Source of the DNA: an uncultured virus (IMG/VR IMGVR_UViG_3300034072_000446)
Taxonomy: Duplodnaviria > Heunggongvirae > Uroviricota > Caudoviricetes
Length of the DNA: 64,000 nucleotides
Virus record (IMG/VR): IMGVR_UViG_3300034072_000446
Strand: one strand, 5' to 3'
Position numbers and translations under genes: made by a program. Of the stretch, positions 10,288 through 58,926 are shown piece after piece (within the stretch, counting starts at the first letter, position 1; each line of letters begins with the position of its first letter). Below the pieces are notes generated by a model. That model was not told the DNA's origin. It searched no databases and worked only from the letters and a program-made list of their open reading frames with translations.

Positions 10288-10546
10288 TCTTCTTCCCTGC
10301 GGTCTTCGTACGGGGATAAGACCTATTTTCTGTCTTACTGCCCATCTTCAGGTTGCTCTTGGAGTTATCAATCGGGTTCCCATTTTTATGCATGACATCC
10401 TTACCATCACCCTTACGAGCCTTACCTGCTTTAATCATTTCTCGACGAGCTGCATTCCTAGCAGCCCTGCGCTTGATTTGTTCGGGTTTTGCATTATAAC
10501 GTTTTTGAGCTGCCTGACGAGCTTTAGTATTTTTAAGTGTCACCAT
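10274..10546 (-). CDS. Small HNH-like protein upstream of terminase
   Basis: KGDGKDVMHKNGNPIDNSKSNL...NRS motif. Confidence 0.7.
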   Translation of the reverse strand: MVTLKNTKARQAAQKRYNAKPEQIKRRAARNAARREMIKAGKARKGDGKDVMHKNGNPIDNSKSNLKMGSKTENRSYPRTKTAGKKNATD

Positions 10547-11009
10547 TTTTCATAAACTCCACAAGTCTGATGAATTCTTCTATAGTGCCGTCAGATTTAA
10601 GGTTGTTGGCTCTCCACGACAAAACTTGAATATTCCCTTTTACATACCCTTTAGAAGAATCTATGCGATCTAAAGAAGGTTTGTTATCTTTTGTCCCTTT
10701 ATTAGCATAAAGCTCAAGAGGGAACCCGAAGACAGGACAATGGGTAGGGATATCAAAGTCATCTTCAGTGAGATTGAACTCTAGTCCCCTCTTTTTAGCC
10801 CTACTTTTAGCGTTTTGTAGCAAATACTTTTTAGGATTTGACTCACGCCATCTGTAGTTATAAACATCTGATTTACTAAGACCTTGCTCAAGCCCCTTTT
10901 TCTGCCAACGTTGATTAGACGCTACAGCACACGGCGAGCAATAGTTCGATTTAGTAAAAATTTCTGTACCGCATGAACAGTACTTTTTTCCATCTATGAA
11001 TTTAGCCAT
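10533..11009 (-). CDS. HNH homing endonuclease
   Basis: N-terminal Cys cluster, CPVFG and PSLDRIDSSKGYVKGNIQVLSWRANNLK; AT-rich. Confidence 0.85.
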   Translation of the reverse strand: MAKFIDGKKYCSCGTEIFTKSNYCSPCAVASNQRWQKKGLEQGLSKSDVYNYRWRESNPKKYLLQNAKSRAKKRGLEFNLTEDDFDIPTHCPVFGFPLELYANKGTKDNKPSLDRIDSSKGYVKGNIQVLSWRANNLKSDGTIEEFIRLVEFMKNGDT

Positions 11010-11036
11010 TATAAAGTTCTCCCTACCTTATACACT

Positions 11037-11065
11037 ATTATAACATATTCTGCAATTTTTGTCAA
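11037..11065 (-). promoter_or_regulatory. Consensus sigma70 promoter for the packaging/structural operon
   Basis: TTGACA-N17-TATAAT with extended TG on the minus strand. Confidence 0.85.
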
Positions 11066-11123
11066 GAGAAAAATGCAAAATTGTGTAAAAATAAAAATAT
11101 TTTTTAATTTATGACGATTTTTA

Positions 11124-11152
11124 TTGACAACTTTCGCAATCTATGGTATAAT
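11124..11152 (+). promoter_or_regulatory. Consensus sigma70 promoter, divergent from the structural promoter
   Basis: TTGACA-N17-TATAAT with extended TG. Confidence 0.85.
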
Positions 11153-11158
11153 ACATTA

Positions 11159-11391
11159 TAGGGTTGCGAGGGTTAATATATACCCCTTATATTCAATAAT
11201 GAATACTCTATGGAGGATAGGCCGAGGGAGCGTAGCGACTGAGGCCTTAGGAGGTAGTAGTTATAACATACAAAGAAAGGAGGGCCTTCCGTGTTTACTC
11301 TTGTGAAGTGAGAAGGGAGGTGATCATTAAATTATCTAGGTTAAGGGCTTCTTAGGCACCCTCTGGGCGACCTTGGGAGCCCTTTTCTTTT
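11159..11391 (+). ncRNA. Putative ~230-nt sRNA rich in GGAGG motifs
   Basis: Bounded by a consensus promoter and an intrinsic terminator; no convincing protein ORF. Confidence 0.55.
11345..11391 (+). terminator. Intrinsic terminator
   Basis: GGGCTTCTTAGG/CCTTGGGAGCCC stem followed by TTTTCTTTT. Confidence 0.8.
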
Positions 11392-11570
11392 GTCAATACT
11401 GAATTATTAATTTTTATATAGACTCATGGGTTATATGCCTGTGGGTCTTTTTTTTGTAATTTTTTCTGTAACGTTTGAGTAGGGTCCCCTCTACGCTACA
11501 TATACGCGCGCGTGCTTCATCCCCCCCCCCCTTATGAGGTAATGTTATAACGTCACCTGCCCACGGGCCG

Positions 11571-11720
11571 CGCAAGAATATTACAAGCAGACGCAACAAA
11601 CACATAGATAAGGCTCGATTCGCTTGCTGACAGACGCAACAATATTACAACACGCAATAATCTTACAAAGGACTATCCATCTATTACGCGAAGCTTCCCT
11701 TGTACGAAATAATGTAACAA
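11571..11720 (+). repeat. 16-bp direct repeats CGCAAnAATmTTACAA
   Basis: Copies at 11571, 11635 and 11653, plus a degenerate copy at 11705. Confidence 0.75.
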
Positions 11721-11740
11721 AAACAGCATGAAAAAAGCAA

Positions 11741-11769
11741 TTTACTTTCGAAAACACCTGGTCTACACC
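11741..11769 (+). promoter_or_regulatory. Putative early sigma70-type promoter
   Basis: TTTACT-N17-TACACC preceded by an A-rich UP-like tract, just upstream of the structured region. Confidence 0.5.
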
Positions 11770-11775
11770 TTGGTC

Positions 11776-12340
11776 ATCGAGAGAGACGGGCCGCCCGGAC
11801 GGGTCAAGCCTCTAGTTCTCCTTGGTCTAGGTCTGACTTGGCAACTAGTCATGTCTAGTTACATAACCCCAATGCGTTAGCTTGTGGACGTGAATTGCAG
11901 TTGCGTAAAGTGCTGCAAGTAAGCGGGTAAAACAGGTGCAAAGGGGAAGCAACGGGCAAGCGGTATTCGCACTGGACATGGATTTGTCCGAAGTGCAGGT
12001 TATCCGGCGGTAACGCGACAGGATACGATCGTCTTGTGTTGGGTCTGACAAGCCTGACAACCGGATTAGGACTATACGTAGACGTAACGTCTATCGGTAT
12101 GGTCAACACGCTGGCTAGGTTCGCTTAGGGCCGATGCCAGCAAGCCCTAGGGTCCGGTAAAAGCCCGGCAGAGAGTTATGTCCTACCTAGGGTATTCCGA
12201 TTATGTGTGATGGCTATCACACACGATGATTATCGCCAAGCTGTTGACAGTTGCAAATAGCAGGGACGGATAGGCTTTTGTAAGCCTTGGGGATGAGAGC
12301 CCGTAAGCCTTAGAATAGATTGGCTGTCCTTGGCGATAAT
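11776..12340 (+). ncRNA. Candidate large structured non-coding RNA (~565 nt)
   Basis: About ten consecutive hairpins or multibranch domains with GCAA/GUAA/UUCG tetraloops and many G-U pairs; no credible ORF. Confidence 0.65.
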
Positions 12341-12405
12341 TCCACATCCTATTGTATCTGTTAGCGCAGCAACACATATCTTTGGATAACCGGAAGGATA
12401 ACCAC

Positions 12406-12576
12406 ATGTATAGAGACTTCTCTCTGCACGTTGCACAATACAAGGCTCTCTTTTCAGGCCTTGTTCTACGGCCTGCCTGCATCGGCCCTTATACGTTCAA
12501 CTATGGCTTGGCTGGAAACTATCGCCCAAACCTTGCCAAAGCTCTTTTGGGAGACCGTTACAATGGCGAGAATTGA
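12406..12576 (+). CDS. Early hypothetical protein
   Basis: ATG preceded by AAGGA; overlaps the next ORF. Confidence 0.5.
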   Translation: MYRDFSLHVAQYKALFSGLVLRPACIGPYTFNYGLAGNYRPNLAKALLGDRYNGEN

Positions 12577-12796
12577 CACTCATCGCGCCGCCTATGTGCG
12601 GGTAAATCCTAACATGAAAGTCGGCAAGTCTGTCCCGTCTAAGCAATCGCTTATTGACAGGCTGACAGCCCTTGAAACTGACATTTCCCGTATGAACACG
12701 GCAAACTTGCCTGAGAGTGAACGTGCGCTTGTTGAACGTGCGCAAGCGGCTGTCCTTGTTGCCCGTCGTTCGTTGCGGATAATGATAACGAAGTGA
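12563..12796 (+). CDS. Early hypothetical protein
   Basis: GGGAG RBS; phage-like codon usage. Confidence 0.6.
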   Translation: MARIDTHRAAYVRVNPNMKVGKSVPSKQSLIDRLTALETDISRMNTANLPESERALVERAQAAVLVARRSLRIMITK

Positions 12797-12826
12797 TTCG
12801 TATGTGCTGCGCTAACACCTGCAATA

Positions 12827-12858
12827 GCGGCTTTGCCACGTCACGGCAAAGCCGTTTT
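12827..12858 (+). terminator. Hairpin (terminator or processing stem)
   Basis: GCGGCTTTGCC/GGCAAAGCCGT 11-bp stem followed by TTT. Confidence 0.5.
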
Positions 12859-12900
12859 AGTGTAGGGCTTGGACAACCAAGTATCTTTTGGAGAACCGAA

Positions 12901-13455
12901 ATGTCGCTCAAGACCATTGATAAGAATATCAAGACCATCACCACGAATGCAGCCAAGCTGAACATTCTCATCCATGAGACTGCCATGCTTATCATGTCTC
13001 ATGCGAAGGAACATGGCGATTGCTCTCGTGCGCTGACTCTTGCAAACGCTATGCCTGCATCCATGCGTAGGACCATGCTTGTTGCTTGGTTCGACAAGTA
13101 TTCTCCTATTCGTGTGATTCAGGCGAACAACAAGGTCGGTATTCTCAAACCTACCGCCAAGAACTATGTCGAATGGGACTTGGAAGGGGCTGCTGCTGAA
13201 CCATTCTATGAGCTTGCAGAGGCTGTGCCTGAAAAGCCTCCTCTCGACTTCAATGCACTGATGCAGATGGTTGCCCGTCTGTCCAAACAGATTGAGAAGA
13301 AGGTCGAGAATGGTGAAGTCGTGGACCGTGATATCGAATCGGCAAAGGCTCTTGCTCGTGCTGTGTCCGGTCTCAAGGTCGAACGCGTGACTGCACCTAC
13401 CAATGAGACCAAGACTCTCACTCCGCTGGCTGAAGGTATCCGCGAAGCGGCATAA
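12901..13455 (+). CDS. Early hypothetical protein
   Basis: 184 aa from ATG 12901 with GGAG RBS; biased codon usage. Confidence 0.8.
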   Translation: MSLKTIDKNIKTITTNAAKLNILIHETAMLIMSHAKEHGDCSRALTLANAMPASMRRTMLVAWFDKYSPIRVIQANNKVGILKPTAKNYVEWDLEGAAAEPFYELAEAVPEKPPLDFNALMQMVARLSKQIEKKVENGEVVDRDIESAKALARAVSGLKVERVTAPTNETKTLTPLAEGIREAA

Positions 13456-16320: not shown

Positions 16321-16519
16321 TAGCCGGTCTACGGCGACCGACAATCCTATGGACGGATGGAATGACAATCAGGTTGCCGACGCTATGCGGCAGACCTTGA
16401 AGACCTTGATTGAGCTTAGAAATAAGCTTGGTAAAAGAGGCTATGACGTAACACTCGATAGCCACCCAACCAATTATATTCCAACTCGCGTAACTGCACG
16501 AAAGACGGTGATTCTCTAA
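16307..16519 (+). CDS. Hypothetical protein
   Basis: GAGGAG RBS; stop overlaps the next ATG. Confidence 0.6.
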   Translation: MRSTDSRSTATDNPMDGWNDNQVADAMRQTLKTLIELRNKLGKRGYDVTLDSHPTNYIPTRVTARKTVIL

Positions 16520-17277
16520 TGTCCGCAATGACTTCAATCTCTAAGAACTACACTAGCCGTGAAATGCCCGAATGCAAGGGTATGAAGGCTTTTGTTCTTC
16601 CGGGTGCCTTCTATGGCGCATGTGTCGCTCTCATGGCCGAGGCCGGCTTTGGCAAGGCAAACACTGTCGAAGATGCAGACGTCGTTGTCTTCATCGGCGG
16701 TGAAGATATCAACCCCAAGCTTTACGACGCCAAGGCACATCGTTCATCTTTCTGGACTGACGACCGAGACTTCCAAGAGGAGTTCTTCTATCGCAAGGCC
16801 CAGAGGCTAAACAAGGTGTGTTTCGGTATCTGCCGCGGCGCACAGTTCCTTCATGCGATGAATGGCGGCAAGCTCTGGCAGAACGTCAATAATCATGGCG
16901 GACCTGATCATGTTATCTATGACATTGACGATGATGTGTATGTGACGGCTACGTCTCTGCATCACCAGATGTTGCAGTTCAACAAGGATATGGAAGTCAT
17001 TGCTTGCACGAAGGAGCAGGTTGCTACCAAGTTTGAAGAAGCTGATTTGGTTGTCCATGTTGACAAGGAAACCGATGACGCTGCTGTTGAACTTGAGATC
17101 GAAGCAGGTTGCTACGCACTGACGCAATGCTTTTTCGTACAAGGCCATCCTGAAATCGGCAATGAGCAGTATCGTTCGTGGACCATGAACAAGCTCTTTA
17201 ACCTGATGTTGGAATGGGGAGCTAAGGATCGTATTGCCGATGAGCCTTACGACGATAGCGAAGGAGTTGCAGCATGA
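16519..17277 (+). CDS. Class I glutamine amidotransferase / peptidase C26-like
   Basis: GGEDINP..Y, FGICRGAQ nucleophile elbow, SLHHQ and VQGHPE motifs. Confidence 0.9.
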   Translation: MSAMTSISKNYTSREMPECKGMKAFVLPGAFYGACVALMAEAGFGKANTVEDADVVVFIGGEDINPKLYDAKAHRSSFWTDDRDFQEEFFYRKAQRLNKVCFGICRGAQFLHAMNGGKLWQNVNNHGGPDHVIYDIDDDVYVTATSLHHQMLQFNKDMEVIACTKEQVATKFEEADLVVHVDKETDDAAVELEIEAGCYALTQCFFVQGHPEIGNEQYRSWTMNKLFNLMLEWGAKDRIADEPYDDSEGVAA

Positions 17278-17360
17278 CACCTCTAGGGAAAGTCTTAGTA
17301 ATAGCTCTACTGACATCTCTATGTTGGTTGGCCGTTATCCTCACCTTTAATCTCCTCTAG
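17274..17360 (+). CDS. 28-aa hydrophobic peptide
   Basis: AAGGAG RBS, ATGA overlap with upstream stop; MTPLGKVLVIALLTSLCWLAVILTFNLL. Confidence 0.55.
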   Translation: MTPLGKVLVIALLTSLCWLAVILTFNLL

Positions 17361-17444
17361 AAGCATTGTTTAAGAGGGTTGTTATAGATAATAGTTAAAG
17401 ACTATTGTTTATTACAATCTTCTTAAACAACCCTTCTATAAGAG

Positions 17445-17473
17445 ATTATATCATCTCTTGTACGAATTGTCAA
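17445..17473 (-). promoter_or_regulatory. Consensus sigma70 promoter antisense to the early operon
   Basis: TTGACA-N17-TATAAT with extended TG on the minus strand. Confidence 0.8.
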
Positions 17474-17485
17474 GGAAAAAATGAC

Positions 17486-17860
17486 ATGCCAAAAGTTACA
17501 CGGGTGAATGTCTGCTTCTCTACTATTTCAGTAAGAAGGGCCAACGGCATTCGCTTCGATGATGGGTCAACTTTGGAAGACTTTCATGATAGCGAGTGCT
17601 GTGAACATCACTACTTAGATTTCTCAGCCATCTCCCTTGAAGACTTCGACGGATTGGAGTTTGATCTGTCGTCAGAAGATTTCTTTGAGAGAGTGCCTGA
17701 CTACGGTATCCGGCTTGTACCTACTAACGGCCACCCGGTTAGCATTCCGGGGTATGGTTACAACAACGGGTACTACTCAAGTAACCTGTCGTTGATTCTT
17801 ACAACACCTGATGGCAAGAAAACTTTCGACATCTCTGAATGCCAAGAGTGGAAGGACTAA
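17486..17860 (+). CDS. Hypothetical phage protein
   Basis: HDSECCEHHYLDF and GYGYNNGYYS motifs. Confidence 0.75.
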   Translation: MPKVTRVNVCFSTISVRRANGIRFDDGSTLEDFHDSECCEHHYLDFSAISLEDFDGLEFDLSSEDFFERVPDYGIRLVPTNGHPVSIPGYGYNNGYYSSNLSLILTTPDGKKTFDISECQEWKD

Positions 17861-17865
17861 TACTA

Positions 17866-19245
17866 ATGTGTGGAATTATAGGCGTAGCTGGCAAGATCGA
17901 CAACAAGCTGCTCAATGCATTCAAGGGTATGCTTGTTGTCAATCAACTTCGAGGCACTGATTCAACTGGTGTCATTCGTGTCAATTCAGCGGGTGGTTAC
18001 AAGTACAAGAAGTCTCTTGGCACTCCTAACTATCTTATGGAGACCAAGTTCTTTGACCGTGAGATTGATATTCACGGAGCCAAGGCGCTGATTGGCCATT
18101 GTCGAGCCAAGACTATTGGCGACAACATTGTTGCTAACGCTCACCCCTTTGAGCATGGTAACATTATTGGCGTTCATAATGGCACTCTTCAGGGCCATTA
18201 CACCATGGAGCGTGCTCGTCAGTTTGACGTAGATAGTGACTGGCTGTATTGGCACATTAGCGAATATGGTCTTAAGGACACCATCAGCCAGTTGGACAAC
18301 ACCGGTGCATGGGCGCTGGTCTATTGGGATAACAAGGAACGCACCCTTAACTTCCTCCGCAATGAGCGTCGTCCTCTTTACTTTGCTCATACAAAGGACC
18401 AGAAGGCTATGCTGTGGGCAAGTGAGCCGTGGTTCTTCTCGGCGGCTACTCGTATTGGTGTTGAACTCCATAAGGATGATGCTGGCAAATCGTTCTTTGA
18501 ACTTCCCATCGAGACACATCTATCATTCACCATCGACGCATACAAGGATAAGCCCTCGGAAATCTTTACCCTTAAGGTAGAGAACGATGTTAAAGGTGAG
18601 GTTAGAAGCTACTCGGGAAACGTGACACACCTGTATGGAAGTGGTGGCAGGTATGGTAGCAGCATCGGGGGTTCAGTGCCCAGCCCTTTCGTGGACAAGG
18701 ACCTTCTCGACGACAATCTCGACGACATAGGAACGTCACGCCCCCGCCAACTCCCAGCAACCACGCAGACTCCGGGCGCTGCGACACATACAGCTTCTAC
18801 CGTCGACAAATCGCAGAAGTCTTCACAACAAAATACGGGTTCCTCGACGGTATCGACAAGTTCGACAAATGGGCAGCGTCCAAAGCTCTCATTACCATCG
18901 TCGAGTTCCAAAAGCTGTCAGCAGGAAAACAGCGGAAGCACTGCAAGAAAGTGCAACGATTGTTCGGAGAATTGCGAAAAGCCGAAGGTGTCCTTTCGCA
19001 CAGTGTCCGGAATACCGTTCATCACGGATAATAAGACTAAGACTGAGTTCTCAGAGCAGCGTTTCGAACAGCTCACGGGAGCAGTCTGCACCTTCTGTAA
19101 GTCACCTGTTGGGGATTTGGATGAAGTCCATGAAATCTTTATTCATTCGAGTGATCGAAAGTTTGACAAGGAGTATGTGACTTTCATTTGTCGTACGTGT
19201 GTTGAACCAAACCCGGCACTTGTTGTTGCCACAATGATCAATTGA
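17866..19245 (+). CDS. Class II (Ntn) glutamine amidotransferase with S/T-rich linker and C-terminal Cys domain
   Basis: MCGIIG start, RGTDSTG, GHCRAKT, NAHPF, GVHNGT and VDSD motifs; CTFC/CRTC near the C-terminus. Confidence 0.9.
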   Translation: MCGIIGVAGKIDNKLLNAFKGMLVVNQLRGTDSTGVIRVNSAGGYKYKKSLGTPNYLMETKFFDREIDIHGAKALIGHCRAKTIGDNIVANAHPFEHGNIIGVHNGTLQGHYTMERARQFDVDSDWLYWHISEYGLKDTISQLDNTGAWALVYWDNKERTLNFLRNERRPLYFAHTKDQKAMLWASEPWFFSAATRIGVELHKDDAGKSFFELPIETHLSFTIDAYKDKPSEIFTLKVENDVKGEVRSYSGNVTHLYGSGGRYGSSIGGSVPSPFVDKDLLDDNLDDIGTSRPRQLPATTQTPGAATHTASTVDKSQKSSQQNTGSSTVSTSSTNGQRPKLSLPSSSSKSCQQENSGSTARKCNDCSENCEKPKVSFRTVSGIPFITDNKTKTEFSEQRFEQLTGAVCTFCKSPVGDLDEVHEIFIHSSDRKFDKEYVTFICRTCVEPNPALVVATMIN

Positions 19246-19257
19246 GGAGTATAATTA

Positions 19258-19473
19258 ATGTTTGTTGCAGGTTTTCGTATCACCTTTCCCGGACCTTTCG
19301 GTAATCTATACCATCACGGGGCTTGTGCAACCGCAGATAAGCTTAAGAAGGGCGCTAAGATTCAAGTAATGGATGCAAAAGGAAATGTTTCCCCGTATCC
19401 TGCTGTAGTTCACTCTAGCGGTGTTGCCGCACGTTCTGATTATGCGTTTAAGTTTGTTGGGGAGTTCAATTAA
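19258..19473 (+). CDS. Hypothetical protein
   Basis: GAGGAG RBS; coupled to the next gene. Confidence 0.65.
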   Translation: MFVAGFRITFPGPFGNLYHHGACATADKLKKGAKIQVMDAKGNVSPYPAVVHSSGVAARSDYAFKFVGEFN

Positions 19474-20486
19474 TGTTTACTATTGGTTGCGATCCTGAAA
19501 TCTTTCTGGTTGACGCCCGCACTAGCAAGCCTGTCAGTGCATACGGTGTAGTCAAGGGAACTAAGCGCGAGCCATTTAAGGTTCCTGCTGGTGCCTATCA
19601 GGTCGATGGAATGGCTCTTGAATTTAATACTGATCCTGTTCCTGCGACTGGGCAGTTCCCAATGTTTGACAAGAACATTGTCTCTGTCATGAAGAAGCTG
19701 AAGGAAGACGTTAAGGCTAACGGGTTCAAGACTGTTCGCTTTAACATTGCCCCTGTTCAGGACTTTGGTGAAGACCTTATGGCTGAGCAGCCGAAGGAAG
19801 CTAAGGAACTTGGGTGCGATCCTGATTGGAATGCTTACACCAAGGAACCTAATCCGCGGCCTGACGGCGATGTTACCTTCCGTACGGCCAGCGGGCATAT
19901 CCACGTAGGATGGGGTGCAGATATTCCTGTAGATCACCCCGATCATATCGAAATTTGTACAGGCTTCATTAAGAAGCTTGATATGACTGTCGGTATGTTC
20001 ATGACGCTGATTGACACTGATTCTCGTCGTCGTGAACTCTACGGCAAGGCTGGCGCATTCCGTCCGAAGCCTTACGGTGTTGAATATCGAACCCCGTCAA
20101 ACGTTTGGCTGACTCACAAGAACCGTCGTCGTATTATCTATGACCTTGTGAATCTTGCTACGTGGTTGAATATGCAGAGTGACCGGACTGTTAAACTGGC
20201 AATAGTAGGTCTGCCATATCTTAATTATGGCAATTGGTCTGCTAATCCTTACAGGTTTATGGACGATATTTCAGACTTGGATACTTTTATCCAGACTATT
20301 ATCAACACGGGTGATACGGAGAAGGCTAATCAGGTTCTTCGGAACATTCTGAATTATTGTTATAGTTCTCACGGCGCTACCCGAAGGCTGCTAAACGCTG
20401 AGCTTAAGCGGATGGCAGGAAAGGAAGAACCTACTCATGCTCATATTGTTGAGCGCGAAACCAAGAAGGGAACCAAGCGTGCTTAA
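19473..20486 (+). CDS. phiEco32-like COOH-NH2 ligase type 2
   Basis: IGCDPEIFL, QVDGMALEFN, LGCDPD.NAY, GHIHVG, RRELYGKAGAFRPKPYGVEYRTPSN motifs. Confidence 0.9.
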   Translation: MFTIGCDPEIFLVDARTSKPVSAYGVVKGTKREPFKVPAGAYQVDGMALEFNTDPVPATGQFPMFDKNIVSVMKKLKEDVKANGFKTVRFNIAPVQDFGEDLMAEQPKEAKELGCDPDWNAYTKEPNPRPDGDVTFRTASGHIHVGWGADIPVDHPDHIEICTGFIKKLDMTVGMFMTLIDTDSRRRELYGKAGAFRPKPYGVEYRTPSNVWLTHKNRRRIIYDLVNLATWLNMQSDRTVKLAIVGLPYLNYGNWSANPYRFMDDISDLDTFIQTIINTGDTEKANQVLRNILNYCYSSHGATRRLLNAELKRMAGKEEPTHAHIVERETKKGTKRA

Positions 20487-21138
20487 GACAGAGTACTTTT
20501 GGACGGACAGGGATCAGGCCAATGAAAGGTTGACCGGTTCGTTTGTTCTTTACAACGATTGTCCTGTTTATATCCACGAAATTAGGTCGCGTCGCGGAGA
20601 CCCTTCTGCGATTACCACTAAGTATCCTACAGGAGTATCTGAGGAAATCTCCTTGTCGGACAAGGGCTTTCATCGGTTCCGCGTTCCACTTCCTATCGGA
20701 TGGGTGAATAATACACATACAAAACAGGCGTATTTTCTTGAACGCCGACCTATTCGTTCCCGACAACACGGCTTCTCTCGAAACAATATTCTTGTTAAAG
20801 AAATTGCAATGCACCGGGGGCTGGGTCTTCTCGCTACTGGCGAAATTTCTTTTGAGACTATTGCTAAGGACGTTCAGTATCAGGCAGCCATTACTGGCAA
20901 TTACCCTGATATTGCAGAAGTTCTTAATCGTATTCGTGCTGGAACCACTATAGCGTTTTGCAATACCATGGCTGTTGGACGAGACGATCTAGGATTGCGT
21001 TGGCTGTATGTCGAACAGGATCGTGTAGGATTGTTTGTTGATAATGACACGCTTCTTCTTATCGACCGGTTCTCATACCTGAAAGAGCAAATTGCTGAAA
21101 CACCTGCTTTCAAGATTTCTAACATTAAGGAGTTCTGA
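20479..21138 (+). CDS. Hypothetical protein of the amidoligase cluster
   Basis: ORF overlapping the ligase stop; LPIGWVNN...RRPIRSRQHG. Confidence 0.7.
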   Translation: MLKTEYFWTDRDQANERLTGSFVLYNDCPVYIHEIRSRRGDPSAITTKYPTGVSEEISLSDKGFHRFRVPLPIGWVNNTHTKQAYFLERRPIRSRQHGFSRNNILVKEIAMHRGLGLLATGEISFETIAKDVQYQAAITGNYPDIAEVLNRIRAGTTIAFCNTMAVGRDDLGLRWLYVEQDRVGLFVDNDTLLLIDRFSYLKEQIAETPAFKISNIKEF

Positions 21139-21142
21139 TAAA

Positions 21143-22618
21143 ATGACTGCGTTCATGGAAGAGTACGAAAAGGTTAAGGCTCCGCATGTCGGTATTCCTT
21201 CTGTCGTAATGAACGAACCTGTTGTGGCCATTAACGGCCTTGGTGAAATCGGACTTGAGTTCGAGATTGAAGGCGAAAATCTTCCTTCGTCCGGAAAGCT
21301 GGCCCGTGTAGTGGGCAAGACTACTGGTTCGCAGTGGACTAGCAAGTCAGACGGTTCCCTTCGTGGTGAATCTCTTGAGTATGTCCTCAGCCGACCTTGC
21401 AATATTGACGAAGTAGACGCGATGGTCGAGGGTCTTTACAAGGCCTTTGTCGACAATGGAACAGAACTTAAGCTTTCAAATCGCTGCTCGACCCACGTAC
21501 ACGTCAACATGGCCGGTGCAAAAGTTAATGATATTACTTCTGCTATCGCTCTTTGGACCGCTTTCGAGGAGCCGTTGACTCTTTGGGCAGGAGAAGAGCG
21601 AGTTAATAACCACTTCTGCCTTGGTGCTAAGGATTGCAATGCAGGCACTGTGTCCGCATGGCGTAGCTTCCTTCGGTCAGGTCGTCGGGATTTCAATGAC
21701 AATCTCAAGTATAGTGCATTGAACATTCTTACGCTGTATCGCTTTGGCTCGCTTGAATACCGAGTAATGAACGGCACTGAGGATGCACAGCGTGCTATCG
21801 ATTGGACTAAGTTTGTTCATAGTCTTACTCGCTACGCTAGTGACAAGTTCGCTAATCCTGCCACGATGGCTTACAGCATGTCTGAGAAGGGCGGTCGTGA
21901 AATCTTCATGGAGATTTGTGAGAAGGCTGGTGTATCGCCTGACTTTGTAACTGGCGTTATTGACACCGTACCTGATATCAATACGGCTGTCATGTGCGGA
22001 TTCCGTCGAGCGCAACCTATTGTAGCAGGGTTCCCTTGGCACGATTGGTATGAAGAGTGCAAGAAGGAATACATCGCTGATCCTTTTGGCAAGTCTAAAA
22101 AGAAGACGGCACGACGAGCCTTTGAAGACTTTGTGATCGCCGATGACTTTGCCGCTATAGCTCCTGCACCTGCGTACAGGCTGCGTCCTCTCTTCGCTGA
22201 AGCGGTTCCGGTTGCTGACGTTGACGTTGCTCGTCCTGATGCCCCCGGTGAGCCTGATCGTCCTCGCATTGTCCCTCGTAATTACTACTGGAACGGCGAG
22301 TATTGGTGCAATCCTGACTATGACCCGGAAGCATTTAACATTAACCTGCCTGACGCACAAGTTGAGTACACAATGTGCCCTGCTGCTCTGCCGATTAGTG
22401 CCGGTGTTGTTAACTCAAATGGGTTACATTTCTACGATAATACTAGTATGCGAGTAGCCCGTGCAATTATCGTTAAGATTGACCGTCGAGGCACTATGAT
22501 TCAGGTACGTGCAAACAAGCGCCTTATGGTTGGGGGGCGTACAGACCTTTCTAGGGCATGGTGGTATAACATTCGTGATGGTCGTTTCAATGGCGACAAT
22601 ATTGCATTCATTCATTGA
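21143..22618 (+). CDS. Amidoligase (glutamine-synthetase-like COOH-NH2 ligase) with C-terminal extension
   Basis: IGLEFEIEG, DGSL...EYV, STHVHVN, KYSALN and GSLEYR motifs. Confidence 0.9.
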   Translation: MTAFMEEYEKVKAPHVGIPSVVMNEPVVAINGLGEIGLEFEIEGENLPSSGKLARVVGKTTGSQWTSKSDGSLRGESLEYVLSRPCNIDEVDAMVEGLYKAFVDNGTELKLSNRCSTHVHVNMAGAKVNDITSAIALWTAFEEPLTLWAGEERVNNHFCLGAKDCNAGTVSAWRSFLRSGRRDFNDNLKYSALNILTLYRFGSLEYRVMNGTEDAQRAIDWTKFVHSLTRYASDKFANPATMAYSMSEKGGREIFMEICEKAGVSPDFVTGVIDTVPDINTAVMCGFRRAQPIVAGFPWHDWYEECKKEYIADPFGKSKKKTARRAFEDFVIADDFAAIAPAPAYRLRPLFAEAVPVADVDVARPDAPGEPDRPRIVPRNYYWNGEYWCNPDYDPEAFNINLPDAQVEYTMCPAALPISAGVVNSNGLHFYDNTSMRVARAIIVKIDRRGTMIQVRANKRLMVGGRTDLSRAWWYNIRDGRFNGDNIAFIH

Positions 22619-22632
22619 GGTAAGGAACTAAC

Positions 22633-23385
22633 ATGCGTATTCGAGTTCTTCCATATCGTCAGGGCAGCCGCTCTGCTCGTGCTCTTGCTGACGCTCTTGG
22701 TGGCAAGGTCCTTCGTCTTGAGGGTTCGCGGTTTCGACCGCGGCCTACAGATGTAATCATTAACTGGGGTAATACTAATCCTTACGCTGGCCCTATGATC
22801 ATGTTTAACGAGCCTGAGTCTATCCGAAATGTTAGTAACAAGCTTACCTTCTTTCAAAGGATGCAGGAGCTTGCGCCTGATGTTATCCCACCATTCTGGA
22901 CGAACAAAGAGGATATTCCTGATGAAGACTTTCCTATTGTCTGCCGGACTGTTCTTGCTGGTCATTCCGGCGAAGGAATTGTTATTGCTAATACTCGGGA
23001 TGAACTAGTCGATTGTTCCCTGTATGTTAAGTATATCAAGAAGCAAGACGAATATCGTATCCATGTAGGAGTTCTTAATGATGGTGGCACATCTATCATC
23101 AGCCAGCAACGCAAAGCCCGTCGTGCCGACGTGGACGATCCAAACTGGCAAATCCGAAATCATGCCAACGGGTTTGTGTTCGTGCGACAAAACGTTCAGC
23201 CCCCTACCCTAGCACTGGACGTGGCACAGCGAGCAATGCTTGCATCAGGCCTTGACTTCGGAGCAGTGGACGTAATCTGGAATGAGCGTCAGCAGCGTGC
23301 TTACGTGCTAGAGATTAACTCAGCTCCCGGTCTCGAAGGGACTACTATTGATGATTACGTCAGGTATTTCGGAAGGCAAATCTGA
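22633..23385 (+). CDS. ATP-grasp ligase (RimK/YheCD-like)
   Basis: INWG, NKL, EYRIHV, IRNHANGF, GLDFGAVDVI and VLEINSAPG motifs. Confidence 0.9.
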   Translation: MRIRVLPYRQGSRSARALADALGGKVLRLEGSRFRPRPTDVIINWGNTNPYAGPMIMFNEPESIRNVSNKLTFFQRMQELAPDVIPPFWTNKEDIPDEDFPIVCRTVLAGHSGEGIVIANTRDELVDCSLYVKYIKKQDEYRIHVGVLNDGGTSIISQQRKARRADVDDPNWQIRNHANGFVFVRQNVQPPTLALDVAQRAMLASGLDFGAVDVIWNERQQRAYVLEINSAPGLEGTTIDDYVRYFGRQI

Positions 23386-23514: not shown

Positions 23515-23543
23515 TTGACAAGCGTTCGTTAAGCTGGTATATT
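23515..23543 (+). promoter_or_regulatory. sigma70 promoter for the replication genes
   Basis: TTGACA-N17-TATATT with extended TG. Confidence 0.75.
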
Positions 23544-44975: not shown

Positions 44976-46943
44976 CTACTTCGCTATCCACCCGGCGCTG
45001 CCAGTGCCGCTTTCCTTGACGTACAGTGTGGTTGTCGCCCCGCCCGAAGTATCGGTATAGAGCGATCCTACAGGCGCGGTGACATTACCATTCGGGCTTC
45101 CTGCGCCACTCGTCCAAATGGGGGCCCCTGAGCCGGGGCGAAACTCTTTTGAATACGCCCGATTAAACCTATTTGTCGAGCGGCCAAGGCCAATAACATC
45201 GTCGGTTACAGGATAAAGCGCATTCAAAACCGGAGATAGGCGAAGATATTCCACCATTGCTCCGCCAGTATTCAAAAAGATAGCAAGGCGGTCATTGTTT
45301 CCACCATCTTGGGCCGCTGCAATCCGCGCGGCAGTGCGCGCCGTGCCGCCCCCTGCTGGAGTTTGGATTTCAAAACCACCGCCGCGACCATCGGAGGCAT
45401 TGCCAAAAATTTTGGCAATAACAGGATAGTCGAAGGTTCCACTGGTAGGTCTTTCGGAAGTCAGGATATTGGTGACGCGCAAAGCGTCCATTTTGCTGAT
45501 ACCCGGACTAATTATGATAGTATTTGATCCAGTGTCAGTCATGCCGGGCCCCGGTGTTACGCCAAGCATGACCGTGTTAAATCCAGAGTTTACGATATTC
45601 CCTCCGACATTTCCTTCATTCTGTTCGCCAGCATAAATCGTTGTATAACGCGCTCCGATATTGGTGCCGCCAGTATTTACGATGTTGATGCCAGCCCCGG
45701 TGTTGGTTTGTGGGAGAAAGTTCTCAATGGAATTATACCAGCCACCATTTATCTTAATACCATCACCGCCGTTGCTTGTGGCGTCAATGTGCTTAATTAG
45801 GCCATTGTTGCAGTTTGCGCCAAAAGACGTGTTGTTGCGATAAAATTCATCATCGACATGATAGCCATGACGACCGTTTTCGCGGAGAAATATGTTTTCG
45901 TGAAAAAATTGATTACAGTTCAATTGAACGCTATCGCCAACGCGAATGCCATCCTGCCCCATTTTGTGCGAGGATACGCGAAGCAGGATCGAGCGCCCGC
46001 CGCGCACATGGATGCCGTCACCAGTATTGCCGGTTTGCCCGATAAACCCACATTCCATGACACCAGCCCCAAGCGCATTGAGGACCAACACCGCGCCGGT
46101 CATAGTGCTTTTTTTGATGATCTGAGTCGCGGCGGTTACTGATGGAAGCGGTGAGCAACCTACGCCGAGCAAAATAACGGGTTTAGAAAAAACCACGCCC
46201 GAACCCCACAGGTAGGTTCCTTGGGGCGCATAAATGGTGCCGCCCGTTTCTGGTAGCGCATCATGGGCCGCCTGAAAGGCTGGCGCATCGTCTGCGGCAC
46301 CATCCCCAACCGCGCCGAAGTCCTTGACGCTGACGGTCTCCCCCAACTTATCCTGTACCGTACGTGCAACTGCGCCTGTGCCAGACTGGAGAAAGCCGAT
46401 CCGCGCAGCACCGCCCTGCCCAGACAGGTCGGACCGCAACACGCCGTCAAGCGCATCTGCATAGATCGGCTCCCCAGCGGAATTCCATGCCAGGAACTTT
46501 CCGTGTCGCCCGGCCGATGGCGGCAGCAGCGCGGCCGTTTCGCCATCGGGAAGCCGTAGCGCGCGTGATTGCACATCGGCCAGGTCAACCGCCTGCTCCT
46601 GCACCGCCATCATCGTGCGATCCAGCGCCAGCTCGTGGCTCCTTGCCGGGAACGCGCCCGATGTCGGATACTGCGTCGGCTGCGCCCGGGGTGTAACCCG
46701 CTTGATCCGCACCCGCTGCCCGGCGGCCGGCGGGGTCACCATGGTCACCGTTCCCCCGGCATCCGTGCTCCCGCCAGTCGCGCTGTAATGCACCCCGGCC
46801 GCCAGCACGGCTGCCACGCCCGCGCTGGAAAGCAGCTCCACTCTCAGGCTCGATGGATCGAGATAACGGAACCGCGCCGCAAACGCCGTCGTCACCCCGT
46901 CGCCGTCGTAAAGCTCGATCGGGTCCTTGGCTGCAACCGTCAT
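44976..46943 (-). CDS. Tail fibre/tailspike: T7 gp17-like anchor plus beta-helix depolymerase
   Basis: YDGDGVTTAF...HELALDRTMM anchor, [14 protein letters not shown] beta-helix cap, C-terminal GAGSPNG.VTAPVGSLY..LYVKESGTG..GW. Confidence 0.88.
   Translation of the reverse strand: MTVAAKDPIELYDGDGVTTAFAARFRYLDPSSLRVELLSSAGVAAVLAAGVHYSATGGSTDAGGTVTMVTPPAAGQRVRIKRVTPRAQPTQYPTSGAFPARSHELALDRTMMAVQEQAVDLADVQSRALRLPDGETAALLPPSAGRHGKFLAWNSAGEPIYADALDGVLRSDLSGQGGAARIGFLQSGTGAVARTVQDKLGETVSVKDFGAVGDGAADDAPAFQAAHDALPETGGTIYAPQGTYLWGSGVVFSKPVILLGVGCSPLPSVTAATQIIKKSTMTGAVLVLNALGAGVMECGFIGQTGNTGDGIHVRGGRSILLRVSSHKMGQDGIRVGDSVQLNCNQFFHENIFLRENGRHGYHVDDEFYRNNTSFGANCNNGLIKHIDATSNGGDGIKINGGWYNSIENFLPQTNTGAGINIVNTGGTNIGARYTTIYAGEQNEGNVGGNIVNSGFNTVMLGVTPGPGMTDTGSNTIIISPGISKMDALRVTNILTSERPTSGTFDYPVIAKIFGNASDGRGGGFEIQTPAGGGTARTAARIAAAQDGGNNDRLAIFLNTGGAMVEYLRLSPVLNALYPVTDDVIGLGRSTNRFNRAYSKEFRPGSGAPIWTSGAGSPNGNVTAPVGSLYTDTSGGATTTLYVKESGTGSAGWIAK
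46115..46374 (+). repeat. Copy 2 of the shared tailspike segment
   Basis: Matches 1-260 at an offset of 46114. Confidence 0.95.
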
Positions 46944-49381
46944 TGCACGATATCTCCCTGTTGCGGTTCAACTGCGTTGGAAAAGTCGGGCGCACGCGCC
47001 GGCGCGACGTCGCCCGGTGCCCACCAGAAATCGGTGCCCTGTTCGCGCGCGAAGTCCGCCATGCGCTGCCAGGACTGGTCATAGTTGGGATCGATCGCGC
47101 GCTGGATCTGGTCGGTCACCAGTCGATCGAACGCGGTCTTGGCATACCACAGCGAGCCGCCGGGAAGCTGGCTGCGGATGAATTTGAGGGTATCGCGCTG
47201 CGGATTGGCAGACTTGGGGATGTTCGCCAGCTTCTGCGCATCCGAGATGATCGGGCCTGCCAGCGTTTCGGCAAATCCGTTACCATAGGCATTTGTACTG
47301 CTCTGCAGGAAGTCGCCGAAGATGCCAAACCCGCCGCCCTGGAGCATCGCCGCGCCCCAAAATTCGGGCGTGGTGGAATCGCGCGGATCCTTGCCATTGG
47401 CCAACGCCTTCAATTGGAGCGCCAGACCCCCGAGAAGCGTTGTTGTGATGACCAATCCGGCCGCATAGCGCGCTGCATTTCCAGCGCTCATTTCCATGAT
47501 CCGGCGCGATTGCATCAGCATGACTGTGACGCCGAAGCTTTTGAACAGGAAAGCACTGCGAATTAATTCGCCGGCCACCGTACCTTTCGGCGCCACCGCA
47601 CTGATTCCGGCCTTCACCCGAAGGTCCGGCACCGGCACCGCGTGATCGACTTCGCGGGCGATCATTTCCAATAAGCGATCGCCCAGCTGCTTGTTCGGCA
47701 GATCGGTGGGCGACAGCCATTCCACGCCCCGGTCAATCGTTACCGGCGAAGTGCGGATTTCATCCCAATCCGCCGCGGTAAAGCCATAGCGATCGAGCGC
47801 GCCTCGCAAGGCCGGATCCAGCTCGCCAAGCGCCTTGCCGCGATGTTCAGTCAGCGTGCCCAGAAACTCCATGCCGAATGCCCAGCGCCCAGCTTGTGTC
47901 CACCGCGCAAGGCCCGAAATTTTCATTACGCCCTCGGCCAACCGTCGCGAAACCTCGCCGGTCATCTCCTCGCCCATGTAACGGTTCTGCGTTGCCGTGC
48001 GGCTCGACCACTCCTCCGCGATCAGGCCCCGGCGCACCGCCATGCGCTGATCCTCTAAAGCACCAGGCTTGAGGTATTTGACGTAATCATTGAGAAGGTT
48101 TGCCACCCGAAGGCCGTTGAATGCTCGGGTAACGGCCTGATTGCCAGCGTCCGAAACTGCGGACAGAGGCGCACTTCCCAGCTTTTGCGCCGTTTGGATC
48201 GACCGGATCGACGACATAACCAGAGCAAGGTTGCGGTTCTCCGCCCGGTTGCTCGCGCCGGTAAGTTCATTCCACATCCGGTCGATCGCGCCGATCTGTG
48301 GCCGCGCGCGGTCCACCGCCTTGCTGTTGGGCGCGGCGTCCGTCTCCGCATCCTTGCGGATCAGATCTTTCATCCACTCGATCGTGTTTCCGGGGTTCGG
48401 GCCCAGCACCTCGAGCATGGCCACATCGCGCGACATGCCATCGATGTGGCCCATCATCGCGTCGAACGCGGATCCCGCGCCGAACTGGTCGGCATAGGTC
48501 ATCCAGTCATCGGCACTCTTGAAGATCAGGAACCGGGCATCGCCGCGCCGGTTGGCCAGCGCCCCGCTGCCCATCCCGCCGGGCGCGCGATCCTTCCAGC
48601 CATCGCTGCGGATCGTCTCGAACACGTCGCGCAAAGCCAGCTCAAGGCTCTGTTGCGTGAACGGCCGCCCGGTGCGCTGATCGATCATCTTGCCCAAGTC
48701 GAGCCGTGGCAGGATCTCCGCGCGCCATGCCTCAAAACCGGCGGCACGCACGGCGCGGCTGTCGTGGGTCTGGGGCAGGCCCCACCGCTCGAGCTTGCCG
48801 ATATCGCCGCCGGCGGCGTTGAAGCGCTGGCGCAGCATTTCAGCCGTACGCAACCAGGCGTCGGCCAACTCGCGCGCGTTCGCGTTGCCGGTATTTTCGC
48901 CAAAGGCTTCGCGCACGATATCGGCCAGCTGCGCCTTGTTGCGCACTTCACCCAGCAGGTTGCTGGAATGCTCGGACAGGATCCGGTCCATGATTGCGTG
49001 CGCCCGGCCGCGCACCGCCCGCCAGCGGCCCTCGACGTTGGAATAGGTGGCGCGGCCGTCGCCTCCCAGCATGGCAGGTCCCGCGCGCGGGTCGATGGGA
49101 CCATCCCCGCCGCCGCCATTATAACCGCGAAGATCTGCCTCGATGCGTTGGCGCGCCCGGACCGTCTGCGCGGCAAGGAACTTCTTGCGCGCCGCCTCAG
49201 CCGCCATGGCTTTCAGCGCGGCATCTGTCGCCATGGCATCGGCGGCCTGGTCGCCAAACTGCCGCCGGAAATCCTGTTGCAGTTCGTCGAACAGCGCACC
49301 GGCGCGATCGGCCTGCTCCTGTGTCAGCTTGCCTTCGGAAACAAGGCCAGGAAGGCAGGGCTTCATGCTCATAGCAAGCAC
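46940..49381 (-). CDS. Internal virion / ejection protein
   Basis: 813-aa helical protein ending AMLQGGGFGIFGDFL; located before the tail fibre. Confidence 0.75.
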   Translation of the reverse strand: MLAMSMKPCLPGLVSEGKLTQEQADRAGALFDELQQDFRRQFGDQAADAMATDAALKAMAAEAARKKFLAAQTVRARQRIEADLRGYNGGGGDGPIDPRAGPAMLGGDGRATYSNVEGRWRAVRGRAHAIMDRILSEHSSNLLGEVRNKAQLADIVREAFGENTGNANARELADAWLRTAEMLRQRFNAAGGDIGKLERWGLPQTHDSRAVRAAGFEAWRAEILPRLDLGKMIDQRTGRPFTQQSLELALRDVFETIRSDGWKDRAPGGMGSGALANRRGDARFLIFKSADDWMTYADQFGAGSAFDAMMGHIDGMSRDVAMLEVLGPNPGNTIEWMKDLIRKDAETDAAPNSKAVDRARPQIGAIDRMWNELTGASNRAENRNLALVMSSIRSIQTAQKLGSAPLSAVSDAGNQAVTRAFNGLRVANLLNDYVKYLKPGALEDQRMAVRRGLIAEEWSSRTATQNRYMGEEMTGEVSRRLAEGVMKISGLARWTQAGRWAFGMEFLGTLTEHRGKALGELDPALRGALDRYGFTAADWDEIRTSPVTIDRGVEWLSPTDLPNKQLGDRLLEMIAREVDHAVPVPDLRVKAGISAVAPKGTVAGELIRSAFLFKSFGVTVMLMQSRRIMEMSAGNAARYAAGLVITTTLLGGLALQLKALANGKDPRDSTTPEFWGAAMLQGGGFGIFGDFLQSSTNAYGNGFAETLAGPIISDAQKLANIPKSANPQRDTLKFIRSQLPGGSLWYAKTAFDRLVTDQIQRAIDPNYDQSWQRMADFAREQGTDFWWAPGDVAPARAPDFSNAVEPQQGDIVQ

Positions 49382-54305: not shown

Positions 54306-54751
54306 CAGCCTGCACTCGTGCCGGCACGCGCAGCGGCCCAGTCATTGTTCATGCCTTTGGCAGCCGAAGCGCTGCCAAGCAGGCTACTGGCCAGCTGGAA
54401 ATAGCCTTGCGTCCGTGTCGCGCTCGCCTGTTTCCTCAGCGTCTGCGCCTTCACCGTGCCTTCTCGCCTTATGCGCAGCACGTCCAGCGCGGCATTGATC
54501 TGGCTTTCCCGCAGATAGTCGAGCGTGCTGCCCGTGCCGCCCTCGATGCCGCCGGAAAACTGGCTTGCGAGCTGCTGGCCGATCGCCTCGCGCGCCTGCA
54601 TCCGCAGGTCCGCCTCCTGCTGCACCGCCGCCTGCTGTTCTTCCCACGCCTGCGCATCCAGCGCCGCCGCGTTGGCCTGGCTCGCCTTGAACTGGCCGAT
54701 ACCTTGGATGATGGGCCCCGCAATGGCCGCCGCAGCTGGCAGGAACGACAT
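54305..54751 (-). CDS. Small internal virion protein
   Basis: MSFLPAAAAIAG..., Ala/Gln-rich. Confidence 0.7.
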   Translation of the reverse strand: MSFLPAAAAIAGPIIQGIGQFKASQANAAALDAQAWEEQQAAVQQEADLRMQAREAIGQQLASQFSGGIEGGTGSTLDYLRESQINAALDVLRIRREGTVKAQTLRKQASATRTQGYFQLASSLLGSASAAKGMNNDWAAARAGTSAG

Positions 54752-55263
54752 CAGCGGATCCTCTCGAACAGGACATGGGTTTCGCTGGCCGCGCCGAACT
54801 TGCGCAAACACGCCACTGCCGTCAGGCCTGCCATCATGGCCCACCGGCAGGGGGCGGTCGGATCGACCATCACGCTGGTCAGCAACTCGTAGGGATCCAG
54901 ATGCGGAAACCGCGCAAGGATGGCTTCGGCGTCATTGGCAAGGGCCACCGCCTCGATCCTTGGCAGCGGGCTCTCAGCCACGATCCGGTGCGCAAAGCGG
55001 GTCAGTGGCACATGCGCGGCGCCCAGCCCTTGCGCGAACAGTGCCATCGCCACGGCGCTGCGGCCGGGGAAATTCTCCGCAATCGAAATGCAGCAGATGA
55101 TCCGGTCGCCGTCCAGCGCCGTCCAAGCATCGCGCTGGTCGGCCAGCGCTTCGGCTTCTTCCTGGGTAAACTGCGTGGGCAGCCCCATCTGCAAGGATTG
55201 GCTCGGCTGCACCACGATTTCAGCCAGGTCCGATGGCACCATGCGGCGAACGTGAAACATCAT
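54751..55263 (-). CDS. GNAT-like assembly protein
   Basis: Position after tail tube B; acetyltransferase-like pattern. Confidence 0.55.
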   Translation of the reverse strand: MMFHVRRMVPSDLAEIVVQPSQSLQMGLPTQFTQEEAEALADQRDAWTALDGDRIICCISIAENFPGRSAVAMALFAQGLGAAHVPLTRFAHRIVAESPLPRIEAVALANDAEAILARFPHLDPYELLTSVMVDPTAPCRWAMMAGLTAVACLRKFGAASETHVLFERIR

Positions 55264-57491: not shown

Positions 57492-57492
57492 G

Positions 57493-58083: not shown

Positions 58084-58095
58084 GGCGCGCGGCCC

Positions 58096-58293
58096 TTACT
58101 GCGGCGGCCAGGGCAGCGAGAAGATCTTCTGCTTTACTTCGTCCAGCAGGATCATTGCTTCACCCTTCGTCATGTTGGTGAAGTCGATGTTGACGCTCAG
58201 CGTGTCGCTCTGCGCCTCGGCCGAACCGGCTGAAAGCGCCACGTCCTTCAGCTCGACCTTGCCGCGCTGGACCGTGAATTTTGCAGTTGCCAT
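58096..58293 (-). CDS. Small hypothetical virion protein
   Basis: 65 aa, AAGGA RBS. Confidence 0.65.
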   Translation of the reverse strand: MATAKFTVQRGKVELKDVALSAGSAEAQSDTLSVNIDFTNMTKGEAMILLDEVKQKIFSLPWPPQ

Positions 58294-58399
58294 GGCCCTT
58301 GTCCTTTAAGGAGGGGGCGGGAAACGTGGGGAGCATCGACGCGGCCATGCTTCCCGCCCTGCAGCTGCCTTTCAGGGGCGGCCGCAATTCATGCACCGG

Positions 58400-58846: not shown

Positions 58847-58926
58847 TTCCTGTGTTTCCTTGCTTCAGGAAGCGCACGTTGCGGCAGGCGGCTCGATCCG
58901 AAAATCTCGGCCGCCGGCCGTTTCGA

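Follow-up and report, generated by a model that had tools for sequence, protein, structure and literature searches.

Positions 11124–11391 of the DNA stretch analysed here (64,000 nucleotides of an uncultured virus of the Caudoviricetes, IMG/VR record IMGVR_UViG_3300034072_000446; hereafter the window, numbered from its first letter) hold a conserved, strongly promoted non-coding unit that shows structural constraints at the RNA level. The unit lies at the edge of a non-coding control region of ∼1.4 kb, divergent from an HNH-TerS-TerL-portal operon, and is found at the same place and in the same orientation in dozens of related phages. We read it as a non-coding RNA gene of a podophage of ∼46.1 kb and as the local member of a proposed new RNA family; with a probability of about 40%, its product would be an abundant RNA that binds protein through hairpins with facing GA dinucleotides (G·A hairpins). 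An earlier interpretation made from the sequence alone (the sequence-only reading) had taken the interval for a small RNA packed with Shine-Dalgarno (SD) sequences that might serve as a decoy for ribosomes or RNA-binding proteins.

The letters and coordinates of that interpretation were confirmed throughout. Both the consensus promoter and the intrinsic terminator by which it had delimited the RNA were present, together with a second terminator downstream (Table 1). The promoter has every element of a sigma-70 promoter (TTGACA, a 17-nt spacer, TATAAT and an extended TG) and predicts an RNA start at ∼11158–11160; with a start near 11159, the predicted RNA is ∼233 nt long when ended at terminator 1 and ∼298 nt when ended at terminator 2. 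A GC-rich hairpin followed by a U-tract, the hallmark of an intrinsic terminator, was found both at 11343–11384 and at 11420–11448 (U8). The fold of 11341–11393 reached −24.7 kcal/mol (z −3.1; none of 200 shuffles was as good) with UUUUCUUUU directly 3′ of it, and had been missed by the terminator scan tool because the hairpin is branched. The family hairpin described below (here GGGC-GA-C-CUUG-G-GA-GCCC, 11365–11382) lies inside terminator 1, and the 3′ hairpin doubles in the window as an intrinsic terminator that is backed by terminator 2. The RNA as a whole folded no better than its shuffles (z −0.70), the hairpins alone standing out. A search of the window found no tRNA or tmRNA. The unit has no conserved open reading frame (ORF), and 36 of the 79 related phage loci share its promoter, orientation and 3′ hairpin, which supports a discrete non-coding transcription unit.

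The loci compared were 79 IMG/VR contigs with a related TerL, many of which showed intergenic homology to the window by nhmmer (e.g. L123, E 4e-24 over window positions 11018–11574). A covariance model of the 3′ hairpin, R1, gave matches in 36 of the 79 with E ≤ 2e-4, all of them on the strand opposite to TerL, and scored 48.1 bits (E 6e-12) at 11352–11405 of the window itself, while 91 unrelated phage loci (367 kb) yielded a single weak match (E 0.02). Read side by side, the members follow one plan: two divergent perfect promoters, a body of 108–207 nt, the hairpin G[GC]C-GA-C(C)-loop-(G)G-GA-G[GC]C, 6–12 nt that are usually pyrimidine-rich, and the word TGTCAA. The perfect promoter layout was present in all 27 members collected with a regular expression, which itself demanded such a promoter. 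When whole RNAs were aligned with MAFFT, their ends aligned and the rest did not. The window unit has the covarying 3′ hairpin with its loop of 3–4 nt, the consensus promoter and the orientation divergent from TerL by which we propose to define this family of G·A-hairpin phage RNAs.

Neither in the window nor in the 18 related loci searched did any Rfam 15 family, phi29 pRNA, 6S, CsrB/Rsm, ToxI and riboswitches being among those covered, reach its gathering threshold; the best sub-threshold match, ctRNA_p42d (25.1 bits, the threshold being 50), concerned the terminator only. A blastn search of GenBank phages with window positions 10900–12500 returned no match, and the closest cultured phages by TerL shared no more than 52.7% identity and lacked synteny. 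With the neighbouring HNH protein as query, only two viral contigs were close, L001 from this very phage and L002 from a relative of 68% identity that is not syntenic, and the best metagenome contig reached 54%, the RNA element being absent from these metagenome contigs except for the one weak match given above. A pattern scan of 185,579 species genomes found no host or prophage; its three matches, in actinomycete DNA of 69–71% GC and of unrelated look, were judged to be due to chance. Our literature searches on phage small RNAs listed no paper on a G·A-hairpin RNA family, which thus appears to be undescribed and is missing from Rfam 15. The kind to which it belongs, phage small RNAs that run from promoter to terminator, is already known. 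In the accessible part of an ONT-cappable-seq study, 29 non-coding RNA candidates derived from 5′ untranslated regions by premature termination are reported for Pseudomonas phages (PMC10914365). Like these, the window RNA is a short, structured promoter-to-terminator RNA conserved within a phage lineage, theirs being abundant and ours predicted from sequence; unlike them as far as that part of the study goes, it is separated from the next gene by ∼1.2 kb and adjoins a block resembling a genome terminus or origin, and there is no sequence relation.

Evidence for constraint at the RNA level came from covariation in the 3′ hairpin. Twenty-four sequences have a GGGC/GCCC stem and 11 a GGCC/GGCC stem (pair 16–53 being GC in 24 and CG in 11), and the outer pair 14–55 is GC in 31, AU in 3, GU in 3 and UA in 1. 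The covariation score was 0.221 against 0.079 in shuffled alignments, none of 500 of which reached it, and fell to 0–0.145 when the pairing partners were slid; on an independent MAFFT alignment it was 0.208 against 0.070. The loop varies (CUUG, AUC, GUA, UCC, GAA, GGUA, GUGA, GUUA) and the facing GA dinucleotides are constant; tandem sheared G·A pairs are a classical RNA motif. A mid hairpin with two such tandem mismatches precedes it in the window, and its core, GA-stem-GUA/GAUA-stem-GA, recurs by eye in L114, L122, L126, L152 and L181, as does the word GAGGGUUAAU of a weak 5′ hairpin in relatives. A generic scan of the phage for G·A hairpins gave 25 against 34 ± 7 in shuffled sequence, which argues that the motif is not a genome-wide type of terminator. 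TGTCAA follows the 3′ hairpin by 6–12 nt in 23 of the 27 members and a U-tract (at least 5 U in 8 nt) in 17 of them; no −10 element was found after TGTCAA on either strand.

Table 1. Coordinates of the features in and around the RNA unit (window positions)
Feature	Position	Strand	Remarks
Divergent promoter	11065–11037	−	12/12; drives HNH (10533–11009), HNH_3, TerS, TerL, portal
Promoter of the RNA, TTGACA-17-(TG)TATAAT	11124–11152	+	12/12 sigma-70 match, extended TG
5′ hairpin, GGGU-UAAUAUAU-ACCC	11170–11185	+	−5.2 kcal/mol, weak
GGAGG 1	11212–11216	+	Directly 5′ of mid hairpin
Mid hairpin, AGGCC-GA-GG-GA-GC-GUA-GC-GA-CU-GA-GGCCU	11219–11247	+	−14.2 kcal/mol, z −2.7; two tandem G·A/A·G mismatches
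GGAGG 2	11250–11254	+	Directly 3′ of mid hairpin
GGAGG 3 within AGAAAGGAGG (11274–11283), then CCUUCC, then GTG minigene	11274–11311	+	
GGAGG 4 within AGAAGGGAGGTGATC	11311–11325	+	GGAGG starts at 11316
Terminator 1, long hairpin AAGGGCUUCU...GGGAGCCCUU, then UUUUCUUUU	11343–11393	+	From fold and R1 model
TGTCAA	11392–11397	+	Reverse complement of −35 hexamer
Terminator 2, 12-bp stem and T8	11420–11456 (hairpin 11420–11448)	+	Listed by terminator scan; −16.6 kcal/mol, z −5.6
Conserved block AATTTTTTCTGTAAC...ACGCTACATATACGCGCGCG...C11	11459–11531		Outside the RNA; from relatives, by eye; C11 at 11521–11531
Four copies of 16-nt iteron-like repeat CGCAAGAATATTACAA (family D1)	11571–11720		75–100% alike

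The bodies between promoter and hairpin share a composition. They are poor in C (7–21%), contain 49–74% purines and carry short tandem purine-rich repeats in the relatives; AAGAAGA is enriched (16 against 1.7) and occurs in 11 of 24 bodies. The window RNA has eight runs of three or more G in 235 nt, which places it in the top 0.2% of the plus strand of the phage. On our reading, host RNA polymerase would make the ∼233-nt RNA in large amounts on first meeting the DNA, and the RNA would act through protein binding, the mid hairpin (11219–11247) and the 3′ G·A hairpin offering a specific handle to a phage or host protein and the unpaired G-runs and purine repeats forming a fast-evolving, multivalent part. 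The two terminators might also shield the adjacent block, which resembles a genome end or origin, from a very strong promoter.

Several points weigh against this interpretation. We identified no partner protein for the G·A hairpins, and the invariance of CGAC...GGAG was partly built in by the regular expression and the model with which members were collected. Variants exist: L103 has GAGACC, and L152 and L181 have a different hairpin without G·A. In the best fold of the window, GGGAGCCC is joined to an upstream GGGCUUC and the G·A hairpin is not formed. A palindromic DNA site could be the source of the G/C covariation, although the G·U pairs and U-tracts point to RNA rather than to such a site. 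A good U-tract is missing from ten of the 27 members, in which transcription probably continues past the hairpin. No body motif is common to all members: ARN runs show no enrichment (coverage 225 against 223 nt), GGA is depleted (105 against 139 ± 7) and SD-like sites are only slightly enriched. Finally, none of the public runs listed for window positions 11000–12500 is on record as RNA, which is uninformative either way; run X20, labelled RNA-Seq, probably consists of DNA and contains nothing beyond short fragments of relatives.

The most serious competitor, possible if doubtful, is a cis-acting leader. Here the 11124 promoter would be the main promoter of the rightward genes from ∼12565 onwards, the ∼233-nt RNA a product of premature termination and the hairpins an antitermination signal, put-like if acting directly on RNA polymerase and nut- or RAT-like if acting through a protein. 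The plus strand at 11153–13000 contains no sigma-70-like site of at least 9/12, only 8/12 sites near 12287–12440, and the next TTGACA-type promoter on that strand is at 23515; in L118 and L096, too, the RNA promoter is the only one in that direction, whereas L090 has further good promoters downstream. The family hairpins that lack a U-tract, with a further conserved block and then a T-run after them, would also suit a leader. The first gene, however, is preceded by two strong terminators, ∼1.1 kb of non-coding iteron DNA and a possible genome end, and the bodies differ greatly among relatives.

Two well-studied systems help to weigh this alternative. The 6S RNA of lambda PR′-tR′ is a terminated transcript of ∼200 nt from a strong constitutive promoter that is subject to Q antitermination, and read-through crosses cos. 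The window unit resembles it in its strong promoter, in a predicted terminated transcript of ∼200 nt and in that read-through would cross a possible genome end; it differs in that the downstream genes serve DNA metabolism and are not late genes, and in that no antiterminator PHROG and no Q- or N-like protein was found among 42 ORFs scanned, the small ORFs not being covered. Phages also overcome terminators ahead of early genes by means of RNA elements such as HK022 put, described in the accessible part of the source as a compact V of two hairpins of ∼70 nt with non-canonical G-A pairs in the stems (PMC9378689). As judged against that part, the window RNA is likewise structured, lies just past an early promoter and ahead of terminators and has G-A pairs in its stems, but by eye its two G·A hairpins are ∼120 nt apart across a variable body, unlike the compact put, and in 17 of 27 members the conserved hairpin itself resembles a terminator.

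The SD words were the ground for the proposed ribosome decoy, and their cluster in the window RNA is real and no effect of composition. All four plus-strand GGAGG were confirmed (starts at 11212, 11250, 11279 and 11316). GGAGG is scarce across the whole window (64 against 114 ± 10 expected) and yet occurs four times in the 207-nt RNA body against 0.82 ± 0.86 in 5000 dinucleotide shuffles (P = 0.0054), and GGAG|GAGG occurs 12 times against 4.5 (dinucleotide shuffles, P = 0.001). These words, two of them extended to AGAAAGGAGG and AGAAGGGAGGTGATC, are stronger than most SDs ahead of the phage's own genes, where by eye an SD-like word precedes ∼15 of 42 ORF starts. As the sequence-only reading had it, AGAAGGGAGGTGATC matches at 14 of 15 positions the complement of what we take to be the 3′ tail of 16S rRNA and is followed by no ATG, the next being only at 11426, and the six-codon minigene GTG TTT ACT CTT GTG AAG TGA is present at 11291–11311, 7 nt after AGAAAGGAGG. 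It is unlikely, in our view, that these words recruit the 30S subunit in this phage, as a decoy or as a shield against RNase. The strongest duplex predicted with the 10-nt 16S tail reached −15.3 kcal/mol; at a cut-off of −6 kcal/mol, however, the window RNA has 6 sites against 4.5 ± 1.3, a number reached by 19% of shuffles. GGAG/UUCC pairing is possible within 11274–11311, and CCUUCC (11285–11290), the only C-rich word nearby, pairs with motif 3, motif 4 or both in predicted folds, so that not all four GGAGG are expected to be free. Titration of ribosomes by a few sites per RNA would, moreover, need a very high copy number.

Conservation in related phages had been named as one check for these motifs. 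At the place of motif 1, GGAGG was kept in none of 7 aligned relatives and GGGG(G) was present in all 7; at that of motif 2 the counts were none and all of 6 (both by eye). Around motifs 3 and 4 the sequence varies, L122 having AAGGAG-type words only (AGAAGGAGA near the place of motif 4). One metagenome contig of 221 nt was identical over 11273–11400, minigene included, and divergent thereafter. In a large branch, the body is instead occupied by AT-rich tandem repeats (TAAGA, ATAGAATA and, in L120, five copies of a 16-nt unit), and AT-rich members have 1–3 SD-like sites each. Across 27 bodies, sites pairing with the 16S tail at ≤ −6 kcal/mol numbered 98 against 86 ± 5.8 in shuffles, with L122, L126 and L096 exceeding their own shuffles; GGRGG in the family numbered 37 against 27.8 ± 5.2 (dinucleotide shuffles, P = 0.06). 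SD words are thus conserved neither in number nor in place, even though the GGGGG of relatives could still pair with CCUCC through a G·U pair. Of the decoy proposal, the enrichment in this phage stood and a selected function of the words was not supported; we infer that GGAGG is this phage's version of the G-runs and not the conserved feature, and the SD reading applies at most to the G-rich branch of the family.

Orphan SD words have a precedent in STAB-SD of the Bacillus thuringiensis cry3A leader, in which one orphan site near the 5′ end of the mRNA acts as a stabiliser. Like that leader, the window RNA is untranslated and has a GAAAGGAGG-type word that no gene follows; it differs in having four sites, in a non-coding RNA, that are unconserved in relatives. 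For this phage and the G-rich branch, a slightly more remote version would make the RNA an agent of host takeover, docking 30S subunits without a start codon through GGAGG/GGGGG words, among them a 10/10 and a 14/15 complement to a CCUCCUUUCU-type tail; the subunits would be withdrawn from host mRNAs or used as a shield, and the invariant G·A hairpins would serve to retain the complex or a partner from the phage. If that were true, the purine-rich, C-poor make-up of the family would be a general solution, of which GGAGG is the sharpest form.

About as improbable as host takeover is a function at the genome end, in which the strong promoter would fire toward a terminal or origin block and either the G-rich transcript, or transcription and pausing as such, would prime or activate replication or mark the site for terminase. 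RNA-DNA hybrids are favoured when the RNA is rich in G-runs and poor in C, phages with cos-type packaging typically have an HNH gene next to those for terminase, and analogies are offered by the R-loop priming of ColE1 and T4 origins, by pausing at the T7 concatemer junction and by the phi29 pRNA. The unit always adjoins the HNH-TerS-TerL genes and a conserved block with iterons (Table 1). The block is made up of an AT-run, ACGC..ATATACGCGCGCG and C11, with a ATACGCGCGCG form before the poly-C, and homologous blocks (AATTTTTT-AT/CT-GTAAC, ACGC..ATATACGCGCGCG, C-run) were seen in L083, L089, L090, L105, L118 and L169. Independent assembly data break inside it (X3 at 11455/11508, X4 at 11521/11544), the homologous ...ACGCATATAC is where the contigs behind L106 and L108 stop, and L169 breaks off just before the C-run. 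The block is a candidate genome end or origin element, and the clustered breaks may mark either a physical genome end (cos) or plain assembly trouble with homopolymers and GC. Against a terminal function, the terminators stop the RNA short of the block, the poly-C lies on the non-template strand, Rfam phi29 pRNA gave no match, and the type of G-run does not track that of the C-tract (GGAGG with C11 in the window, GGGGG with C4TC5 in relatives).

Further repeats and structures were noted downstream. Two copies of CAGACGCAACAA lie within 11571–11720, where relatives have GAACA runs and GTTCGTCGC. A second conserved block, CCGTACAGAGG...GGTACATGGGTAGC...CTGTACGGGGCTTTAAAATCG, stands 20–150 nt after TGTCAA and before a T-run in L092, L102, L118, L121, L122, L144, L157 and L158; RNAalifold found no consensus structure in it, and the window has terminator 2 in its stead. 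The non-coding ∼1 kb at 11560–12540 had a somewhat more stable fold than shuffled sequence (z −2.2, 20 shuffles) and contains long-range inverted repeats (20 nt at 11662/12265 and 12 nt, perfect, at 12229/12329) as well as small palindromes.

It is quite improbable that the RNA is a base-pairing small RNA, assisted by Hfq or ProQ, that regulates host or phage mRNAs. Its terminator hairpin has a U-tail and AAGAAGA is enriched in the family, but ARN runs, besides not being enriched in the family, are absent from the window RNA (at least three repeats), so that it lacks the combination of (ARN)n runs and U-tail of Hfq class-II-like RNAs; no conserved seed was seen and no target of at least 11 complementary nt was found within the phage genome. 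A sponge for CsrA or RsmA, put forward by the sequence-only reading, is disfavoured to the point of being hardly tenable: the promoter-to-terminator layout and the repeated short purine motifs recall CsrB and RsmZ, but the seven GGA of the window RNA equal chance (7.04 ± 1.8; reached by 62% of shuffles), ANGGA is little above it (4 against 1.95; reached by 11%), the family is depleted of GGA, and in the predicted fold GGA lies outside hairpin loops, unlike the pattern in those sponges. Just as implausible is a micro-peptide (MFTLVK) or bar-like minigene, the six codons after the strong SD 7 nt ahead of the GTG being lost in L122 and not kept in other relatives and the SD itself predicted to be paired.

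Phage small RNAs have been found in numbers, very few of them with a defined structure, family or function. The RNA family proposed here has a comparative signature (promoter, covarying G·A hairpin, C-poor body), a fixed place beside the packaging genes and the block resembling a genome terminus or origin, and dozens of natural variants, and therefore makes a tractable case for the function of a strongly promoted phage RNA, in which protein capture, control of polymerase read-through across a genome end and ribosome engagement can be asked about. It also illustrates that a striking cluster of SD words in a single genome need not be the selected feature.

The podophage genome that carries the unit corresponds to the first ∼46.1 kb of the window. 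Leftward from 11065 it encodes an HNH endonuclease, a second HNH_3 protein, TerS, TerL, portal, scaffold and capsid; 11010–12560 is non-coding and the first plausible rightward gene begins at ∼12565. Primase-helicase, DNA polymerase, a gp2.5-like single-stranded DNA-binding protein, ribonucleotide reductase and a lysis cassette are also present, and no RNA polymerase was matched among the 42 ORFs scanned. The stretch 11066–11123, ahead of both divergent −35 elements, contains ATGACGATTTTTA, and L114, L138, L152, L083 and L105 keep inverted TGTACGATTT-like words there, which may be a site for a shared regulator or of UP type. Two further promoters of consensus grade were seen: a perfect one at 17445–17473 on the minus strand, which opposes plus-strand genes near 17405–17860, and one at 23515–23543 on the plus strand (TTGACA-17-TATATT with TG), ahead of the primase-helicase gene. 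The early arm (16519–23385) carries a cluster of glutamine amidotransferases, a COOH-NH2 ligase/amidoligase and an ATP-grasp (RimK-like) protein.

The window itself seems to consist of two records, 1–∼46,114 (47% GC) and 46,115–64,000 (62–68% GC), the high-GC part (∼64% GC overall) carrying a second set of virion genes (internal-virion, tail). Positions 1–∼46,114 form a single genome, circular or permuted: the stretch 12500...10900 is bridged by a public-run contig of 46,062 nt, whose start covers 11508–12500 and whose end covers 10900–11455 with zero differences. The IMG/VR record G001 ends at window position 45,669 and lacks the region of the RNA unit. The ORF 44976–46943 spans the seam and is probably an artefact, and ORF 2–415 on the minus strand possibly represents the genuine N-terminus of the tail fibre.

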